Under the pieces are notes generated by a model that was not told the origin of the DNA, did no database searches, and was given only the letters and a program-made list of their open reading frames with translations. The position numbers were made by a program, and so were the translations under genes. From Elusimicrobiota bacterium (GTDB lineage: Bacteria > Elusimicrobiota > Elusimicrobia > F11), in NCBI GenBank assembly GCA_046153645.1, contig JBJXGI010000019.1, positions 1 through 13,503 on the forward strand: a DNA stretch of 13,503 nucleotides, read 5' to 3'. Below are positions 612 through 13,503 of this stretch, piece after piece. Each line of letters starts with the position of its first letter. The stretch's first letter is position 1.

Positions 612-930
612 CTTATCGTTACCCATAACTTTATAGAATCGAGGGAGCCGAGTGACAGAAATTGAGTGGGAGGTGAATTGAATGGCCCAACGATTAACAA
701 CACTTGTGACCCATGAATTTGATGGTATAGAGCTGGGGGATAAACGTTTGAATGAACGATGTCATGATATAGTCAAAGCCATGAGCAAGAACCCTGAGAA
801 AAGTATTCCTGAGAATTGTGAAGACTGGAGCAGTACAAAAGCAGCGTATCGTTTTTTTAGCCACGAAAATACGACCCGAGAAGTTGTGCTGGAAGCACAT
901 TTTAAACATACGAGTGAACGTTGTCGCGGA
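612..930 (+). mobile_element. Truncated IS4-family (IS50/Tn5-like) element: left end plus transposase N-terminus
   Basis: The 19-bp CTTATCGTTACCCATAACT (612-630) matches the IS50 outside end CTGACTCTTATACACAAGT at 11/19 positions. SD GGGAGGTG at 668-675, ATG at 682. The protein shows the Tn5-type DNA-binding motifs EFDGIELGDKRLNER, SIP, W...KAAYRFF and H...T.ER. No DDE domain or right end is visible. Confidence 0.8.
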
Positions 931-1245
931 CGTATCACAGATGGTGGAGATGCCGGCGACTCTCCTTATCCCGTTATTTGTGTATGGAACGGGAAGGAGA
1001 AAATACTGGAAATAATGTCCGGCGAAAACAATTTGATCATGCGTGTTGAAATTTTTAGTAGCCGCGTTAAAAATTATTTTGGCCCGCAAGTCGGATCTCG
1101 TTTTTCCGATGTATTTACTGCTGATATCCCAAGTGATTGTGAAAGTGATGGAAAATCGGTTGTATGTTCTCAGAAATTTTTTTCCCTCTTCGATATGTAT
1201 TTGAAGGGAGTTGGAATGGTAATGGCCGCGAATTACCACCGGTAG
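682..1245 (+). pseudogene. Chimeric ORF: IS50-like transposase DNA-binding domain (~aa 1-83) fused in frame to a DUF1131-like fragment
   Basis: Transposase similarity stops near RCRG (~930). The downstream sequence is unrelated to transposases. Confidence 0.7.
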
Positions 1246-1591: not shown

Positions 1592-1755
1592 CCCATGATG
1601 GGTGAAAATCATGGGGGCAAACCTTGCGAGAGCAAGGGACGGTTTTAGAAGAGAATCTCTAGAACCACATCAGGAAGGCTTTAAGTGTCTCTTGATGGGC
1701 AAAGCCACGGGCCCGATGAAGTGGATCGGGAAGCCGGGTTACCGAAGATGATGCA
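1592..1755 (+). ncRNA. c-di-GMP-I (GEMM) riboswitch-like aptamer with a 58-nt insertion
   Basis: GGCAAA-CCTTGC-GAGA-GCAAGG-GAC (1616-1640; P2 with GNRA loop), then after the insertion GCAAAGCCACGGG-CCCGAT/ATCGGG-AAGCCGGGTTACCGA (1699-1745; P3). Equivalents of the ligand-contacting G20 (1616), A47 (1701) and C92 (1742) are present. It sits in the leader of a motor-gene operon. P1 is not clearly canonical. Confidence 0.75.
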
Positions 1756-1860: not shown

Positions 1861-3639
1861 GTGAGAAAAATGGGTGAATGGGTGAAGCATATCGGTTGTT
1901 CTATTTGGAACTCCTTTTTGGACATGGCGGATAACGCCAGCGTCCTCTTTTCTATTTTATTCCAGCCTCTTCGTCATCCCGTCATGATGGTTTATACACT
2001 TTTGCGTTGCGACTACACCTCACCCGGTCGTCGTACCGCACTGCTCAGCCGAGGTCGGAAGGCATTACTCACCCTAATGCTTCTGACCTCGGCTATTTTT
2101 TCTTCGACCAGCAAAATGTACGCCGCCGGTGAACCCGGTGCCTTCCTTCAATGGGGAGCAGGAGCCCGCTCTCTGGGAATGGGTCGCGCTTTCTTGGCTG
2201 TTTCCGACGACGCCAGTGCAACATATTGGAATCCTGCCGCGATGGTGCAGTTACAAAGAAAAGAAATCATGGGTCTTCAAGCCACGTTGTTTGCTGAGAC
2301 CAACTATAGTTTTTTCAGTTATGTCAGCCCTGGTAAAAAAGGAGGAGCTTGGGGTTTTAATATGACGAGTTTAACTTCTGGTGGTTTTGAGAAAGTTAAA
2401 GTTAAAGTGGATCCCGCGTCTTCGCCCAGCAATCCTGATTATTTATCTGTTGAAAAAGCAGGCGCTTATGAAGTTTCTCAAAAAGCTTACACTTTCGCCT
2501 ACGGTAAACAAGTGACGAATAAATTGGCGATGGGCTTAGCATTAAAGAGACTAACCAACACGGTTGATACTTTCGCGCAATCTTTTACCGCTGTTGATGC
2601 ATCTATATTTACCAAAGTAAATCAAAATTATCGTTTTGCCTTGGCCGTTAAAAATGCGGTCGCCCAGAATCCTGGGAATTCTAATGATAAATTGCCGCTC
2701 ACTTTTCGTATTGGAAATGCTTTTTCTTTAATGAATGATCGAGTTATTTTGGCGGCTGATTTAAATTCTTCCCAAGGCAGTGGTTTTGGTTGGAATTTAG
2801 GGACAGAGTATTCGGCAAGTCGGAGAATGGCTTTTAGATTAGGACTTGAAAGTAGAGATGGTGCTATCGCTGAAACAACTGCCGGTTTTGGACTGAAGTT
2901 CAGTAATTTTAATTTGGATTTGGCTTTTGGTATTACGGAACTGGGAATGTCTCAACGATATTCCCTCTCTTGGAAATTTGGCAAAGGCGCTAAAGCCGGG
3001 CAGCAAGACGAAGCTCGTCGTCTTATTAAATCCGGAGAATCCGCTTTTGCTAAAGGGCAATATGCCCAAGCTGTGGCCAGACTTGAAGCGGCATTGGGTG
3101 TGGACCCCTCCAACAAGGAATTGCAAAGCATGGTGGCAAAACTCAACAGTATTGCCGGCTCTATTCCTGCTGCTACTGGTGATGGTGAAATTGATCGGTT
3201 GGTGAGACAAGGTGTCTCTGCCTTTGTTGGAGGAGATTTATCAACAGCTTATGATTCATTAAGAACCGCTTATGAGAAAAACCCATCCAATCAAAGCTTG
3301 CTTAATTTTACGAATCGAGTTGCTCGTCAAGCCGGTCAACCTTTGGTCGAAGCTCCTCGTGATTCCTTGTCTGGAGCGCGTTGGACCCTGGTAGACCAAA
3401 AACTTCATGACGCGCTGACGGCTATTTATGAAGGTCGTTATGACGTGGCTATTAATAAATGCGAACAAGTATTGAGAATTGATCCTAGTAACGTGACGGC
3501 CATTGGACGAATGGGCGCTTCCTTCTTCTTAATGGGCGAAAAAGATAAAGCCATTACCTTGTGGAAACGCGCTCTTGAGCTTGAGCCCAATAACCAAACC
3601 GCGATTGAATACCTTAAGCAACTAGGGGTAGAGAAGTGA
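1861..3639 (+). CDS. PorV/PorQ (FadL-like) outer-membrane beta-barrel protein with C-terminal TPR repeats
   Basis: Signal-peptide-like RGRKALLTLMLLTSAIFSSTSKMYA, hatch motif GARSLGMGRAFLAVSDDASATYWNPAA, and alternating beta-strands ending YSLSWKF. TPRs follow (GQYAQAVARLEAALGVDPSN, GRYDVAINKCEQVLRIDPSN, KAITLWKRALELEPNN). The start is uncertain (1861, 1870 or ~1984). Confidence 0.85.
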   Translation: MRKMGEWVKHIGCSIWNSFLDMADNASVLFSILFQPLRHPVMMVYTLLRCDYTSPGRRTALLSRGRKALLTLMLLTSAIFSSTSKMYAAGEPGAFLQWGAGARSLGMGRAFLAVSDDASATYWNPAAMVQLQRKEIMGLQATLFAETNYSFFSYVSPGKKGGAWGFNMTSLTSGGFEKVKVKVDPASSPSNPDYLSVEKAGAYEVSQKAYTFAYGKQVTNKLAMGLALKRLTNTVDTFAQSFTAVDASIFTKVNQNYRFALAVKNAVAQNPGNSNDKLPLTFRIGNAFSLMNDRVILAADLNSSQGSGFGWNLGTEYSASRRMAFRLGLESRDGAIAETTAGFGLKFSNFNLDLAFGITELGMSQRYSLSWKFGKGAKAGQQDEARRLIKSGESAFAKGQYAQAVARLEAALGVDPSNKELQSMVAKLNSIAGSIPAATGDGEIDRLVRQGVSAFVGGDLSTAYDSLRTAYEKNPSNQSLLNFTNRVARQAGQPLVEAPRDSLSGARWTLVDQKLHDALTAIYEGRYDVAINKCEQVLRIDPSNVTAIGRMGASFFLMGEKDKAITLWKRALELEPNNQTAIEYLKQLGVEK

Positions 3640-3668: not shown

Positions 3669-3759
3669 TCGTCACCCCGGCATGTCGTTAGCCGGGGTCC
3701 AGGATTAATTTTTTTTCAATTGAAAAGGAGCTGGATCCCGGCTTGCGCCGGGATGACGA
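3669..3759. repeat. REP-like composite palindrome (GTCA.CCCGG...GGTCCA / TGGATCCCGG...GGATGAC type)
   Basis: Terminal inverted repeats TCGTCACCCCGGC / GCCGGGATGACGA enclose two hairpins, ACCCCGGC..GCCGGGGT and ATCCCGGC..GCCGGGAT. The element is intergenic. Confidence 0.8.
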
Positions 3760-3771
3760 AAAATTAAAAGT

Positions 3772-5718
3772 ATGCGAAAACTCGAGATGGAAATTAATTG
3801 TAACTCCGCTTATACTCAGAATATGGTGTGTTCTAATTTTCGTTTTATATTTTTAACGGCTTTTTTTTCATGGGTTTCTGTTTTTTCTCCAATGATAGTT
3901 GAGTTAAAAGCCGTGGGGACAGAGATGCCTGATCCTATGGCTCTTGATCAAGAGCGCCGAATTAAAGAAGACACCGAACAAAAAGCGCAGGAGATCTGCG
4001 ATAGCATTCTTGGTAAAGGGCAGGCCAGTGTTTTGGCCAATATTGAATTGGGTATTGAAACCAACCGGAAGGGTGGGGCGGCGTTGGACCAAAAAAGAGA
4101 GTCTAAATCCGGATTGGGGGATGAGAATTTTATCCTTCCCTGGGTTCCCGCGCCAAAATCGGTTTCTAAAGAAGAGCAACCCAAAGATAGCAACGTTCAA
4201 ACGCAAGCGGCTCAACAAGAATCGGTTGATGTGAGAACAGTTGTGAAGCGGTTTGATATTACAGTTATTCATGATGACACAATTCCAGAATTAAAGGTGA
4301 CGTTAGTTAAAGACGCGCTGACTTCTGCTTTTGATCGTTATAAAAGTATCTTGAAGCTTTTTTTTAAACCAACTTCTTTTTCGAAAGAAGGACCCATAAG
4401 AACATCCGACGTTGTTAAGAAAAACTTTATTGATTCACTTAATCTAAAAACAATTTTGTTTCTCATTCTTCTTATGATTCTTTTCATGGTGCTCAAATTT
4501 TTCTTTGGGCCTTTGGCTGACTTTATGAAAAATTACATAGATGGAATGAAAGAACAATCAAAATCTAAAGTGGAAATGGAAAATAAGAGTGAAGCAGAAA
4601 ACGAAACAGATGCCGCTAATGAAGATGAGACTCTTTCGGAAGAAGAACAACAACGTTTGGCAGAAGAACAGGCCGCCATGGAGGCGGCATTATTAGCTGA
4701 GGAGGAAGTTATGGAAAAATTTGTTCCCTTTAAATACATTACTGATGAAAATGTGAAGCAATTGGCTTATTTGCTTCATCATGAAGAGCCTTGGATTGTG
4801 GCCATGGTGATCTCTTATCTTTCAGCTGAACATGGTTACAAAGTCATGGAAGCTCTTCCTTCTGATCTTCAAGCAAAAGTGGCTTTGGAAACGGCCATGT
4901 ATCGACAAACTTCTTTGGAGCAGGTTCAGGCGGTTGATTTAGATATTAAAGAAAAGATTGATTTTGTGGTCGGTGGTTTGGATAAGTTGGTTCTTATTTT
5001 AGAGAGTTCCGATCGGTTTGCCAGAGATAATATTTTGGAATATCTTAAAAATGAAAAGCCCGCAATTTATGAACGCGTGAGAGAAAATATTCTTTTGTTT
5101 GAAGATATTGTTAGTTTCCCTCGTCCAGCGATGCAAGTTGTTGTTCGGGAAGTAAAAACCGAGCAGTTGGGCGTGGCATTAAGAGGATGTAGCCCAGAAC
5201 TACAGCAGAAGTTCATGGAAAATATGTCACAGGGAGCGGCGGCTTTACTTAAAGAAGAAATGGAATTCGGTCGCCCCGTTACAGATGAACAAATTGAAGA
5301 AGAGCGTCGAAAAATTGTTGATCTCATTAAGTCGATGGAAAAAGATGGGAAGTTGAGTTTTAGGCAAAAAGGGAAAGGGTCTAGTCTTGAAGCGATGGAT
5401 ATGGGGAGTGATATGTCAGGTCTTCGTGGCATGGTTGGTAAATCGGCCAACCCAGAAGCGGCCTTGGCTTCTTATCAAGCGGGGGTTCAGGCGGGGGAAG
5501 CAGGTGACATTGAAGAGTCCATTCGGCAATTTGAAGCCAGCATAAAACAGAATTCTCAACTTGCCCCCGCTCATCAGGCTCTGGCCAACGCCTATTATTC
5601 TGTCGGGAGATATCAAGAAGCCCTGGCAAGTTACGATATGTTGCTTAAACTAGAACCAAATGACGAGTTGCAAGTTTGGGTAGACCAGTTACGAGCCACT
5701 ACTTCCGCAGCTGCATAA
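3772..5718 (+). CDS. Fused rotor protein: signal/TM, FliF RBM3-like periplasmic domain, TM, acidic linker, FliG middle and C-terminal domains, TPR
   Basis: FliG-M (aa 319-396: PFKYI...LLHHEEPWIVAMVISYL...LP), GG linker, and FliG-C (LLFEDI...REV...ALRG...NMSQGAAALLKEEMEFGRPV...IV...MEKDGKL). TM at ~aa 227-248. FliF-like segments EQKAQEICDSILGKGQASVLANIEL and VVKRFDITVIHD. TPR at ~aa 564-630. Confidence 0.85.
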   Translation: MRKLEMEINCNSAYTQNMVCSNFRFIFLTAFFSWVSVFSPMIVELKAVGTEMPDPMALDQERRIKEDTEQKAQEICDSILGKGQASVLANIELGIETNRKGGAALDQKRESKSGLGDENFILPWVPAPKSVSKEEQPKDSNVQTQAAQQESVDVRTVVKRFDITVIHDDTIPELKVTLVKDALTSAFDRYKSILKLFFKPTSFSKEGPIRTSDVVKKNFIDSLNLKTILFLILLMILFMVLKFFFGPLADFMKNYIDGMKEQSKSKVEMENKSEAENETDAANEDETLSEEEQQRLAEEQAAMEAALLAEEEVMEKFVPFKYITDENVKQLAYLLHHEEPWIVAMVISYLSAEHGYKVMEALPSDLQAKVALETAMYRQTSLEQVQAVDLDIKEKIDFVVGGLDKLVLILESSDRFARDNILEYLKNEKPAIYERVRENILLFEDIVSFPRPAMQVVVREVKTEQLGVALRGCSPELQQKFMENMSQGAAALLKEEMEFGRPVTDEQIEEERRKIVDLIKSMEKDGKLSFRQKGKGSSLEAMDMGSDMSGLRGMVGKSANPEAALASYQAGVQAGEAGDIEESIRQFEASIKQNSQLAPAHQALANAYYSVGRYQEALASYDMLLKLEPNDELQVWVDQLRATTSAAA

Positions 5719-10743: not shown

Positions 10744-11001
10744 ATGATTTTATTAAAGCGCTTGAATGGAACACAATTTAATTTAAATGCTGAATTGATT
10801 GAACAAATTGAAAGTACCCCTGACACGGTCATTACTTTGACAACAGGCAATAACATTGTCGTTTTGGATAAGCGTGAAGACGTGATAGAGAAAATAGTCG
10901 AATATAGAAGAAAAGTTAATTTGGATGAGTCGTCATTCCTGAATGTCTCTACCTGCCCGCAAGTTGGCAGGCGGGTCGGGAATCCAAACTGTCAAAAATA
11001 G
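10744..11001 (+). CDS. flbD: FlbD/SwrD family protein; last ~24 aa are encoded by a palindromic repeat
   Basis: MILLKRLNG...LNAELIEQIESTPDTVITLTTG...V...E.VIEKIVEYRR is the family signature. The gene is in its usual position immediately upstream of motAB. Confidence 0.9.
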   Translation: MILLKRLNGTQFNLNAELIEQIESTPDTVITLTTGNNIVVLDKREDVIEKIVEYRRKVNLDESSFLNVSTCPQVGRRVGNPNCQK

Positions 11002-11086: not shown

Positions 11087-11896
11087 ATGGATCTAGCAAC
11101 AATATTTGGAATTTTAATTGGTCTTTTGATGGTTTTTTTAACCATTTTTCATGCGGAAGGGTTAAAAGGTTTCGCGCCCTTTTTAAATGCTGAAGCCGTT
11201 CTTATTGTTATGGGAGGAACTTTTTGCGCGCTTTTAGTTAATTATCCGCTCTCTCAGATATTGGGGATTTTTAAGGTCCTCAAAAAAGTCATGAGTAATC
11301 ATATTGTTGATACTTCTGAGATTGTGACCACCTTTGTTAAGTTTTCAAAGAAAGCTCGAACCGATGGTTTTTTGGCTTTGCAGGAAGAAGTGAAAAACAC
11401 AAAAGACGATTTTTTAAAAAGAGGAGTTCAGCTTGTTATTGATGGCGCCGATAAAGAATTTATTCAAAATATGATGGAAACTGAAATCGGTTTTATTCGA
11501 GAACGCCATAAATTGGGACAAGAAATTTTTAATTCTTTAGGGACCTACGCACCCGCTTTTGGAATTATCGGAACTATTCTTGGAATGATTATGATGATGA
11601 CCTCTCTCGATGACGTGGCGCAAGTCCCACGGAGAATGGCGCTTTGTTTGTCCGCGGCTTTTTTCGGTTTGGCCTCAGGGTATTTACTTTTTCTTCCTAT
11701 GGCGGGAAAGTTAAAACGCCGATCTGAAGAAGAGCTTCTCATTAAAGAAATTGTTATTCGAGGGGTTTTATTGCTTCAAACGGGGGCCGCTCCGTCACTT
11801 ATGGAATCTAATTTGAAAGCTTATTTAGATCCTACAACAAGGAACCTCATTCGAACCGGAACCATTGCGGGAGATGACAAAGCCAATGCCGCTTAA
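11087..11896 (+). CDS. motA: MotA/PomA-family stator A subunit
   Basis: MDLATIFG, LIVMGGT, ARTDGFLAL, FLKRGVQLVIDG, APAFGIIGTILG and FLPMAGKLK motifs; four hydrophobic segments. SD-like AGAGGT upstream. Confidence 0.95.
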   Translation: MDLATIFGILIGLLMVFLTIFHAEGLKGFAPFLNAEAVLIVMGGTFCALLVNYPLSQILGIFKVLKKVMSNHIVDTSEIVTTFVKFSKKARTDGFLALQEEVKNTKDDFLKRGVQLVIDGADKEFIQNMMETEIGFIRERHKLGQEIFNSLGTYAPAFGIIGTILGMIMMMTSLDDVAQVPRRMALCLSAAFFGLASGYLLFLPMAGKLKRRSEEELLIKEIVIRGVLLLQTGAAPSLMESNLKAYLDPTTRNLIRTGTIAGDDKANAA

Positions 11897-12563
11897 ATCC
11901 AAAGACATGATTGAAATGAGTGACCCCCGTGTTTGTCAGGTGGGGCATCCGGCGCCAGGCTGGATGGTTAATTACGCTGATTTAATGACGGAGTTGGTTT
12001 GCTTCTATTTAATTTTATATGCCTTATCCGCTTCGTTATCTAAGCCTATTCAAGAAGCAAAAAAAGAAGTTGAAGAAACCATGAAACAAGAAGAAGTGGC
12101 CGGCGATGTCAAAATCACCAAAGATGGTTTGGTTATTTCTCTTCAAGAACAAGGGTACAATGTTTTTTTTGAAAGCGGTTCCTCTGAAGTTACTGATCAA
12201 ATGAAAAAGATTTTAGATGGTTTGGCTCCCACGTTTCAAAAATTAGGACAAAAAAAACACGAGATGATTGTTGAAGGGCACACCGATGATATTCCTATTA
12301 GCACGGTACGGTTTCCTTCCAATTGGGAGTTGTCTACTGCAAGAGCCACTTCAGTTGTTTTATATTTGATTAATAAACATGGTTATCCTCCCACTCATAT
12401 TGGCGCAATTGGGTATGGTGAAAACAAGAGTTTGTCGCGTCTTCCTGACGAAGATGCAGGTACCTGGCGCGCGCGGAATCGAAGAGTTGTGTTCGTTATT
12501 AAAAATCCTGAACCTGAAAGTAACCCTGAAAATAAAAGCGAAACAAAAAAAGACGAGCACTAA
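11865..12563 (+). CDS. motB: MotB-family stator B subunit with OmpA-like peptidoglycan-binding domain
   Basis: TM motif WMVNYADLMT with the conserved Asp, then VEGHTD, FPSNWELSTARA, GYGE and RNRRV. It overlaps the motA end; the true start may be the ATG at 11874 or 11886. Confidence 0.95.
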   Translation: MREMTKPMPLKSKDMIEMSDPRVCQVGHPAPGWMVNYADLMTELVCFYLILYALSASLSKPIQEAKKEVEETMKQEEVAGDVKITKDGLVISLQEQGYNVFFESGSSEVTDQMKKILDGLAPTFQKLGQKKHEMIVEGHTDDIPISTVRFPSNWELSTARATSVVLYLINKHGYPPTHIGAIGYGENKSLSRLPDEDAGTWRARNRRVVFVIKNPEPESNPENKSETKKDEH

Positions 12564-12669: not shown

Positions 12670-13503
12670 ATGAAACTCTCTTTAAAGAAATCTTTAGCGC
12701 TTTTTTTATCCCTGATTTATTTCTTAAACCAAGGCGTTTTTGCCTCATTAGCCGAGTCCCGCTTTTGGGAAGAGCGGCGCCTGGCTTCAATGAGTGCCGC
12801 TTTAAAACCCAACCCTCTTTTAACAAACCTGCCAGCGATTAATAATCATCTTGAGGTTGCCTCGAAATGGAGTGATTCTAAGGAAATAAAAAAGTGGCCG
12901 AAACCGCACCAAGACGCGCTCGCAGCTATTTCTCTTCGTCACGGAAGCATTCAAGATATCTATTCAACATCGTCCCCCCAGCCTGTTTCTCCGGTGGTTC
13001 TAATTCAAGATATTCATTTGAATGCAGAGGCTCAAGAAAATATTGCTTCGCTTTTAAACGGGTTAATTGAGAAAAAACAGGCAGGCCTTGTGGGTGTTGA
13101 AGGGGCCTTTGACACATTTGATTTTAAACCGTTTAAAAAATTCTCTCATCATCCCCTAGCAAAAGAAATCACAGACGCCTTTTTGAAAGCTCAACTCTTA
13201 GCCGCTCCGTCTTATGTGGGAATAATTAATCCCACTGAAACATCTCTGTTCATGGGAATTGATGACAAAGAACATTACGACTTGAACGTGAAGGCATACT
13301 TAGAAACCAGAACGCTCAAGAAAAAAGTGATCAAAGAAATTGAGCAAGAAAAACACGTTCTGGAAGAAAAGAAAAAAACAATTTTTTCAAAAGAATTAGC
13401 CGAGTTTGATGCAAAGAGAGAATCCTATGAAAGGGGAACGTTGGGGCTTGGGGAATATGTGGATATACTTTTCAACGACCCCTCCCCTCTCCCGTTGTAC
13501 GGG
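12670..13503 (+). CDS. 3'-partial secreted protein, absent from the ORF track; resembles the N-terminal domain of large Elusimicrobiota/Omnitrophota proteins
   Basis: Open for 278 codons to the window edge: MKLSLKKSLALFLSLIYFLNQGVFA (signal peptide), ESRFWEERR, VVLIQDIHLNAEAQENIA, LVGVEGA, MGIDDKEHYDLNVKAY. Confidence 0.85.
   Translation, partial: MKLSLKKSLALFLSLIYFLNQGVFASLAESRFWEERRLASMSAALKPNPLLTNLPAINNHLEVASKWSDSKEIKKWPKPHQDALAAISLRHGSIQDIYSTSSPQPVSPVVLIQDIHLNAEAQENIASLLNGLIEKKQAGLVGVEGAFDTFDFKPFKKFSHHPLAKEITDAFLKAQLLAAPSYVGIINPTETSLFMGIDDKEHYDLNVKAYLETRTLKKKVIKEIEQEKHVLEEKKKTIFSKELAEFDAKRESYERGTLGLGEYVDILFNDPSPLPLYG

Follow-up and report, generated by a model that had tools for sequence, protein, structure and literature searches.

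A natural single-chain fusion of a FliF RBM3-like domain with FliG and TPR domains, encoded together with FlbD, MotA and MotB in Elusimicrobiota

The window, the 13,503-nucleotide (nt) contig JBJXGI010000019.1 (contig C81) of an Elusimicrobiota genome of 2.63 Mb and 99.7% completeness (GenBank assembly GCA_046153645.1), encodes at positions 3772–5718 a protein in which an RBM3-like domain of the MS-ring protein FliF, a transmembrane (TM) helix, the middle and C-terminal domains of the rotor protein FliG (FliG_MC) and tetratricopeptide repeats (TPRs) follow one another in one chain. This architecture is confirmed, and its interpretation as a fusion of FliF RBM3 with FliG, put forward in the original prediction from the DNA letters, is supported. 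The domains are homologous to those of the flagellar rotor and the operon in which the gene lies is conserved in the phylum. The protein is probably a cut-down, one-chain flagellar rotor subunit that is served by its own MotAB stator and has been put to another use. Named relatives of the proteins of this contig are from Elusimicrobiota metagenome-assembled genomes without exception.

From the N-terminus the fusion consists of a signal-like helix, the periplasmic domain, the TM helix, an acidic linker, FliG_M, FliG_C and two TPRs (Table 1). Its full-length AlphaFold model has a mean predicted local distance difference test score (pLDDT) of 78.8; it is confident for amino acids (aa) 55–99 and 152–201 of the periplasmic domain, the TM helix from aa 225, both FliG domains and five TPR helices, and of low confidence in the insert between strands beta1 and beta2, in the linker at aa 267–293 and at aa 535–557. 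Two hydrophobic segments stand out, a layout shared by the majority of some 120 homologs. The first peaks in hydropathy at aa 25–43 and coincides with a model helix at aa 24–46. In many homologs it ends in small residues (AxA-like) that are followed by a conserved PDP...LLEQE (alignment A1 of 49 homologs of the fusion, on which all statements on residue conservation rest), and it may be a cleaved signal peptide and not a first TM helix (TM1). The second segment reaches a hydropathy of 2.84 at aa 228–246 and contains the nearly invariant residues F243, G246 and P247. The linker has a pLDDT below 50 at aa 267–293 and a helix at aa 291–315, while the TPR module is modelled as five helices, two TPR motifs and a cap, at a pLDDT of about 96–98; Pfam TPR_2 scores 33.1 bits at aa 598–631 (cut-off 27), and TPR matches span aa ~564–631. 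Translation may start at Met18 (position 3823) instead of Met1, as most homologs begin 4–10 residues ahead of the hydrophobic helix. The stretch before Met18 (aa 1–17, positions 3772–3822) carries a short motif, ..S/G-A-Y-T.., that is also found in the N-terminal extensions of several close homologs (P0009, P0029, P0049 and P0052), which points to translation of the extension or else to a conserved DNA or RNA signal.

The identity of the periplasmic part as an RBM3 domain is carried by structure. A model of aa 48–228 (pLDDT 77.7, core above 90) consists of a helix, a long strand, a disordered insert, a long strand, a helix and a strand, and the elements that had been read from the translation are present in the models: the helix ending in ILGKG at aa 55–80, the strand with ASVLANIEL at aa 85–99, the long insertion with LPWVP as a low-confidence insert at aa ~100–150, and VKRFDITVIHD at aa 152–168 followed by a helix at aa 173–186 and a last strand at aa 194–201. 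In the LPWVPAP motif of the insert P123, P126 and P128 are invariant or nearly so, and more distant family members carry LPGVP or LPGIP at the position of LPWVP. When the model was compared with the PDB by Foldseek, 18 matches were obtained at E ≤ 1e-3 and every one of them was a FliF MS-ring or RBM3 structure; SpoIIIAG followed at rank 19 (E 5.4e-3), with PrgK and Shigella inner-ring entries further down. The TM-scores (template modelling scores) of these matches are modest, 0.25–0.43, because of the beta1–beta2 insert. An independent search of 48,161 representative chains with VIA-align also placed FliF at ranks 1–3 (Z 12.0, 11.4, and 10.4; root mean square deviation 2.4–2.5 Å over 97–101 residues), with model residues 3–157 aligned to residues 228–438 of Salmonella FliF. 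The next folds were OsmC-like (Z 8.8), PrgK, SpoIIIAH and EscJ (Z 8.1–8.5); SpoIIIAG had Z 7.1. FliF RBM3 with its collar is thus the top structural match in both searches, and the kinship with SpoIIIAG that had been raised for comparison is seen in both, but ranks below FliF.

A sequence link to FliF is obtained by way of a second fusion of the same genome. The protein P0124 on contig C40 consists of RBM3, TM helix and FliG_MC in 575 aa without TPRs; its periplasmic domain carries FLPGVPN and passes the Pfam family YscJ_FliF_C (PF08345) with 29.1 bits (cut-off 23.8). P0124 is collinear with the window fusion over aa 25–528 (26% identity, E 2e-39), and several relatives of P0124 and of a third fusion subfamily carry a precomputed YscJ_FliF_C match. 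Of the match to this family that had been expected for the periplasmic part, the paralog therefore provides what the fusion itself does not, and the transitive link through P0124 is the strongest sequence tie of the domain to FliF. An alignment of 64 periplasmic domains (A2), taken from the window, the C40 paralog and 62 related loci, gave a profile that, searched against the PDB, had FliF as four of its five matches, in alignments that begin with the initial helix and strand of RBM3 and extend to LPGVP opposite AGVP. RBM1 and RBM2, which in FliF are the parts around the export gate, are absent as predicted. The family YscJ_FliF (PF01514) is unmatched on aa 1–260, unlike in the canonical FliF of the genome, which scores 230 bits, and there is no space for them because the RBM3 fold begins only about 10 residues after the signal-like helix.

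The cytoplasmic part is a FliG without its N-terminal domain. Both FliG_M and FliG_C were found by Pfam, as was the added TPR module, in agreement with the original prediction, and the FliG part aligns to FliG_MC of Thermotoga maritima (1LKV) with E 3.5e-38. FliG_N, likewise expected to be missing, has no Pfam match, and TIGR00207 (fliG) aligns aa 318–530 to profile positions 110–328 of 338 with a score of 119.1, under the equivalog cut-off of 226.7. The Gly-Gly hinge is retained (VGGLD opposite VGGID in T. maritima, with G401 and G402 invariant). In the torque-helix region the fusion has NMSQGAAALLKEEMEF and T. maritima NMSKRAAALLKDELEY, with K-E-E opposite K-D-E of the latter. A charged torque helix faces MotA in the flagellar motor, the residues being R281, D288 and D289 in E. 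coli FliG. Judged by its residues, the FliG part should still face a stator, while FliM binding and a role as a flagellar-style switch are unlikely for it. Calling the protein a C-ring component goes too far, as FliG_MC is all that is there and EHPQ, within the FliM-binding motif EHPQR of FliG, is altered to EEPW.

The gene lies in an operon whose order is conserved across Elusimicrobiota: a PorV-like outer-membrane barrel with TPRs, the fusion, coiled-coil proteins, FlbD, MotA and MotB. From the fusion to FlbD the genes are separated by 10-nt intergenic gaps, and motA and motB overlap. GTDB representative genomes were scanned for the locus, with 118 relatives obtained out of 176 candidates, and the best 80 loci, all labelled Elusimicrobia, Endomicrobia or plain 'bacterium', were searched by tblastn with the window proteins; neighbourhood counts refer to subsets of these loci defined by flank length. 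Of the 61 loci in which 2.5 kb or more of upstream sequence is available, 55 have the PorV-like gene immediately before the fusion. Its product scores 108 bits with NF033709, PorV_fam (cut-off 90), at aa 95–373, with TPR matches at aa ~385–585, and lies far under the cut-offs of the PorV, PorQ and PorV2 equivalog models. The first coiled-coil gene begins 10 nt past the fusion stop and is kept in the closest relatives, and most loci have a homolog of the second after the fusion. MotA, with FlbD, is downstream in 37 of the 50 loci having at least 6 kb of flank and in 26 of the 39 having at least 9.5 kb. MotA is most similar among solved proteins to flagellar MotA of Clostridium sporogenes (6ysf, E 6.9e-49), followed by Bacillus subtilis MotA and Vibrio PomA (to 1e-40). 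It is a divergent member of its family, since the NCBIfam equivalogs for MotA, MotP and PomA give 229, 219 and 196 bits, below their cut-offs of 394, 340 and 341. MotB has the plug, the TM aspartate (in YADLMT) and the OmpA-like peptidoglycan-binding domain. In the MotA loop the basic residue is conserved as K or R in 49/49 orthologs, and eight residues past it (position 99) stands Q in 40/49 and E in 9/49. A co-variation of charge in which loss of the FliG arginine would be paired with loss of this MotA glutamate was considered and dropped, as Q is likewise found at this position in the genome's flagellar MotA, and E in the C40 stator though the C40 fusion has glycine. Loci without MotAB have instead a conserved protein of ~1600–1860 aa that ends in a TPR, together with M16 peptidases and a coiled-coil protein, and FlbD-MotAB is absent within 10 kb; these loci are L032, L036, L037, L039, L041, L043, L047, L052, L064, L067, L073, L074, and L084.

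Table 1. Features of the window and of the second fusion locus of the same genome (contig C40, coordinates of locus L003)
Feature	Position	Strand	Basis or remark
Riboswitch-like aptamer of c-di-GMP-I type ahead of the PorV-like gene	1667..1746	+	RF01051, just under threshold
PorV/PorQ-family outer-membrane barrel with C-terminal TPRs	1861..3639	+	NF033709, TPR_2 and related
FliF(RBM3)-TM-FliG(M,C)-TPR fusion	3772..5718	+	open ORF, 648 aa
N-terminal hydrophobic helix, aa 23–46: signal peptide or TM1	3838..3909	+	hydropathy, AlphaFold model
Periplasmic FliF RBM3-like domain, aa 55–201, insert aa ~100–150 with LPWVPAPK	3934..4374	+	AF2, Foldseek, VIA, PDB profile
Transmembrane helix, aa 225–250	4444..4521	+	hydropathy, model helix from aa 225
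Cytoplasmic acidic linker, aa 251–317, partly disordered	4522..4722	+	Glu/Asp-rich sequence, AlphaFold model
FliG middle domain, aa 329–397	4756..4962	+	PF14841, E 1.2e-12, 48.3 bits (cut-off 25)
FliG C-terminal (torque) domain, aa 424–529	5041..5358	+	PF01706, E 8e-31, 106.9 bits (cut-off 23.3)
C-terminal TPR module, aa 561–647	5452..5712	+	TPR_2, TPR_1, TPR_19, TPR_16 matches
Cytoplasmic coiled-coil protein 1, 583 aa	5729..7480	+	no Pfam/NCBIfam match
Coiled-coil protein 2, giant, Pro-rich N-terminus, 1080 aa	7491..10733	+	weak SMC-like coiled-coil matches
FlbD	10744..11001	+	PF06289, E 2.1e-26
MotA-type stator A subunit	11087..11896	+	PF01618, E 8.7e-26
MotB-type stator B subunit	11865..12563	+	MotB_plug E 1.3e-9, OmpA E 1.1e-14
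Second RBM3-TM-FliG_MC fusion P0124, 575 aa, no TPR (C40)	L003:1258-2985	-	passes YscJ_FliF_C
MotA (C40)	L003:457-1251	-	directly after P0124 fusion
MotB (C40)	from L003:454 downward	-	after C40 MotA

The genome is unusual in that a full flagellar cluster and the second fusion with its own MotAB stand beside the window operon. The cluster, on contig C58 at ~26–63 kb, looks complete (flagellins, MotA, FliF, FliG, FliM, and FlhA), and because the contig agrees with the rest of the genome in GC content and tetranucleotide composition it represents retention or transfer and not contamination. Three separate sets of rotor and stator genes are thus found, the flagellar one on C58, that of the window and that on C40, and the operon of the window is unlinked to the flagellar cluster. 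As the flagellar cluster and the second fusion set are in the same genome, the window fusion is an independent system, neither a decaying remnant nor a stand-in for FliF and FliG.

Across the phylum, the fusion is independent of flagellar genes. In a sample of 401 genomes from 123 genera, 293 of them of high quality, the periplasmic domain defined by A2 is found in 166 genomes, 136 of the high-quality genomes and 84 genera, and it is almost missing from two families with small genomes, f2 (1/118) and f16 (0/89). FlhA is found in only nine of the 401 genomes, leaving 392 without it. Domain and FlhA occur together in four genomes, so that 162 of the 166 domain-bearing genomes are without FlhA, and five of the nine FlhA-bearing genomes are without the domain. 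In the family of the window genome the fusion is present in all seven other genomes and FlhA in none. The predicted absence of a type III secretion gate is supported by this distribution, although in the window genome FlhA is encoded on another contig.

A mechanism can be sketched from these parts. The signal-like helix would send the FliF RBM3-like domain into the periplasm, and the single TM helix with the acidic linker of ~65 residues would tether FliG_M and FliG_C beneath the membrane, the TPR module closing the chain. The RBM3 domains would form a ring as those of FliF do, and each subunit would thereby contribute one FliG_MC to a ring on the cytoplasmic side. The flagellar MS-ring is an assembly of about 33–34 subunits. 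A dedicated FlbD-MotA-MotB stator, which is encoded four genes downstream and would be anchored to peptidoglycan through MotB, may by its ion flow push the torque helix of FliG_C and turn the ring. The resulting machine would lack an export gate, a rod, a hook and a filament; its conserved partners would be the PorV-like barrel with its TPRs and the cytoplasmic coiled-coil proteins, and expression of the operon is probably controlled by cyclic di-GMP (c-di-GMP). It is tempting to speculate, and we do so tentatively, that this constitutes a third kind of machine with the flagellar torque core in Elusimicrobiota, a gate-less RBM3-FliG ring with its own FlbD-MotAB that is controlled by c-di-GMP, coupled to the coiled-coil and PorV-like proteins and used for a task at the envelope, e.g., the movement or handling of giant surface adhesins. 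If so, it would be a rotary motor without filament or secretion gate, working beside a flagellum and a second rotor.

Several observations weigh against the proposal of a reduced rotor subunit. The ring, its rotation and its output are what we infer for the fusion and not what was observed. At the sequence level the periplasmic domain resembles FliF only weakly: Pfam finds no match on aa 1–260 even at E ≤ 10, the FliF matches of the A2 profile in the PDB have E-values of 0.026–0.082, and an hhalign comparison of the domain with the genome's own FliF gave a probability of only 14.5% (E 0.0019), over beta2-alpha2-beta3. In the FliG part, the torque-helix arginine (KR in T. maritima) is replaced by a glycine, G488, that is invariant in 49/49 aligned homologs; EHPQ of T. 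maritima has become EEPW in the fusion and in the family consensus, and MFVF has become ILLF, so that stator contact and switching cannot be those of the flagellar motor. Furthermore, among the 39 loci whose downstream flank reaches 9.5 kb or more, 13 lack MotAB in that flank, and many RBM3-like proteins that stand alone, without TM2 or FliG, indicate that the domain can work without FliG. A four-copy complex prediction of the periplasmic domain scored 0.01; as it was made without controls it has no bearing either way.

Some of these points would sit well with an arrangement in which there is no ring, single or few copies of the fusion acting as a force transducer in the manner of TonB, TolA or GldM. 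A MotA5B2 stator would then act on the FliG_C of individual tethered subunits, and the periplasmic domain would relay force or a signal to the PorV-like barrel and TPR protein. The barrel with its periplasmic TPRs is indeed the most constant neighbour of the fusion (55/61 loci), a ring is only a matter of inference here, and the standalone secreted proteins suggest that the domain is possibly a periplasmic interaction module. We nevertheless consider a transducer unlikely, as the best structural match of the domain is no generic alpha/beta domain, but the ring-forming RBM3 of FliF complete with collar insert. To our knowledge, the RBM families among the high matches (FliF, PrgK, EscJ, SpoIIIAG, and SpoIIIAH) all build rings. 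The PorV-like neighbour also brings to mind type IX secretion and gliding, with FliF-FliG and MotAB in the place of GldLM or PorLM powering giant surface proteins with the C-terminal domain (CTD) of the type IX secretion system (T9SS) through the barrel. The neighbour does pass the cut-off of the PorV/PorQ family, an ORF of more than 2400 aa lies just upstream of the PorV-like gene in at least nine loci, the C-termini of five out of five such giant ORFs examined match CTD regions of PorU, PorZ and M6-like T9SS proteins, and the genome has 10 matches to Por_Secre_tail. The models of GldL and GldM are unmatched in the genome, but are so in every control genome as well, which makes their absence uninformative. 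Por_Secre_tail is present in 266/401 genomes of the phylum, and the two small-genome families separate it from the fusion: it is found in 52/89 genomes of f16 and 21/118 of f2, where the fusion domain is found in 0/89 and 1/118. CTD export in the phylum is thus independent of the fusion, since CTD domains are common in families that lack it. In addition TIGR04183 scores 17–21.8 bits on the giant proteins, below its cut-off of 23, and the window has no giant gene upstream, where an insertion sequence (IS) fragment and the contig end are found instead. Such a role for the fusion is accordingly quite improbable.

That the fusion is an accessory of the organism's flagellar motor, an extra FliG paralog with a stator that joins or tunes the flagellum, can be given hardly any credence. 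The genome does hold flagellins, MotA, FliF, FliG, FliM and FlhA on C58, a contig whose make-up agrees with the rest of the genome, and FlbD, MotA and MotB of the window are of flagellar type. Against this stand the near-complete separation of the domain from FlhA over the phylum (162/166 and 5/9 genomes, as counted above), the seven related genomes that have the fusion and no FlhA, the missing linkage of the operon to the flagellar cluster and the changed FliM-binding motif. A reduced rotor subunit with another use, as proposed above, remains the reading that we favour.

With the flagellar rotor core of Salmonella and Vibrio (PDB 6scn, 8z5v) the fusion shares the RBM3 fold with its beta1–beta2 insert and (G/W)VP motif, the TM helix after this domain, FliG_M and FliG_C with the Gly-Gly hinge and the acidic pair of the torque helix, and MotA, MotB and FlbD of the flagellar type, the drive of the flagellum being MotA5B2. 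It differs in being one chain, in the absence of RBM1/RBM2, FliG_N and the FliG-binding C-terminal tail of FliF, in the torque arginine replaced by glycine, in EEPW, and in having a TPR tail and a signal-peptide-like N-terminus; moreover its operon is without flagellar genes, and in most genomes none were found. The ring of the sporulation channel, SpoIIIAG (PDB 5wc3), has in common with it a ring-forming RBM with a beta insert, but has neither FliG part nor stator and scores clearly under FliF. FliG and MotAB are known from textbooks as partners in the flagellum only. Engineered full-length FliF-FliG fusions from Salmonella (PMC6079021) and Vibrio (FliFG, PMC11481574; PDB 8z4d/8z4g) are reported to form rings. 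Like the natural fusion they have FliF and FliG covalently joined 1:1, and chain 8z4d is matched by the A2 profile as well as by the FliG part of the natural fusion. The engineered proteins contain whole FliF (RBM1–3) and whole FliG with FliG_N, 945 aa in Vibrio, whereas the natural one keeps RBM3 and FliG_MC only in 648 aa. Such fusions had been regarded as laboratory mutants; engineered ones are indeed known, but a natural one from Chlamydiaceae has been published too. As described there, it joins a shortened FliF to a part of FliG in bacteria thought to be non-flagellated, starts with a signal sequence, contains two hydrophobic segments, comprises ~330 aa with an RBM2-like part, no SpoIIIAG-like (RBM3) domain and a FliG_M-like region only, and is proposed to be a partner of the injectisome (Bergeron 2016, PeerJ, PMC4768692). 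Compared with that account, opposite parts are kept here (RBM3, FliG_M, and FliG_C) and a dedicated MotAB stator is added. Homologs of motAB, flbD and fliG of unclear role are mentioned for free-living, flagellum-less Elusimicrobiota in a preprint (bioRxiv 10.1101/2022.07.08.499144), and no description of an RBM3-FliG_MC architecture in Elusimicrobiota was found in the literature covered, subscription journals being outside this coverage. If the operon does encode a functional motor, the torque core would be a stand-alone module in a phylum that is mostly without FlhA. It would then offer a minimal natural system for the assembly of a gate-less MS-ring, for how the FliF:FliG stoichiometry is set and for the question whether the rotor or the secretion system came first.

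The family is wider than the window fusion. A search of 1.84 billion proteins with the A2 profile gave 490 cluster representatives at E ≤ 1e-3, and the best 150 of these fall into three groups: fusions with a TPR tail (~600–700 aa), fusions without TPR (~470–550 aa), and many proteins of ~150–240 aa with a signal peptide and an RBM3-like domain alone. P0194, P0196, P0203 and P0211 are examples of the last group. All 18 of the long, more distant matches that were examined contain FliG_MC, none of the best 150 of the 490 has the canonical FliF layout, and the named members of three fusion subfamilies are from Elusimicrobiota throughout. A quick maximum-likelihood tree of FliG_MC was built from 71 rows: 16 of the 49 homologs in A1, 14 of ~55 of the C40 type, 18 other fusions and 23 canonical FliG, the latter being 22 weak matches and the genome's own FliG. 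One branch parts the 48 fused from the 23 canonical sequences with an SH-aLRT (Shimodaira–Hasegawa-like approximate likelihood ratio test) support of 99, in a tree that is unrooted, comes from a short search and has several long branches and a small canonical sample. This fits a single old origin of the fusion but is no proof of it.

Control of the operon by c-di-GMP is likely, although not established. No Rfam family matches the window at gathering score. The c-di-GMP-I riboswitch-like element upstream of the PorV-like gene reaches 32.8 bits with RF01051 (gathering score 35) over the full model, 1–87, with E 7e-5 in a search of 321 nt, and at the same position two of six related loci score above gathering, L048 (RF03167, 63.2 bits) and L035 (RF01051, 42.1 bits). 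Promoter and terminator scans of the window gave chance level only. The sequencing runs listed for the genome are four DNA runs of one study, with no RNA run among them.

Downstream of motB no gene is conserved: an ORF of at least 278 aa without Pfam or NCBIfam match runs off the end of the window at 12670–13503 (+), unconserved at this position in L005, which has a DsbA-like gene there. Upstream, the PorV-like gene is immediately preceded by the end of an ORF exceeding 2400 aa in the loci mentioned above, at least nine in number, which include the closest relatives of the window. Near the contig start lies a DNA-binding N-terminal fragment of an IS4/Tn5-type transposase at 682–1245 (+) (cf. 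1–360), and the giant surface-protein gene of the relatives may have been lost or left unassembled in the window, where this fragment and the contig end sit. Elsewhere in the genome, at C79:38442-39022, an open frame of 8738 aa with Por_Secre_tail matches was seen. Between the PorV-like gene and the fusion, at 3670–3760, there are two GC-rich hairpins (CCCCGGC...GCCGGGG with a T run, and CCCGGC...GCCGGG), which could act as a terminator or attenuator or could be copies of the GC-rich hairpin repeats of the genome.

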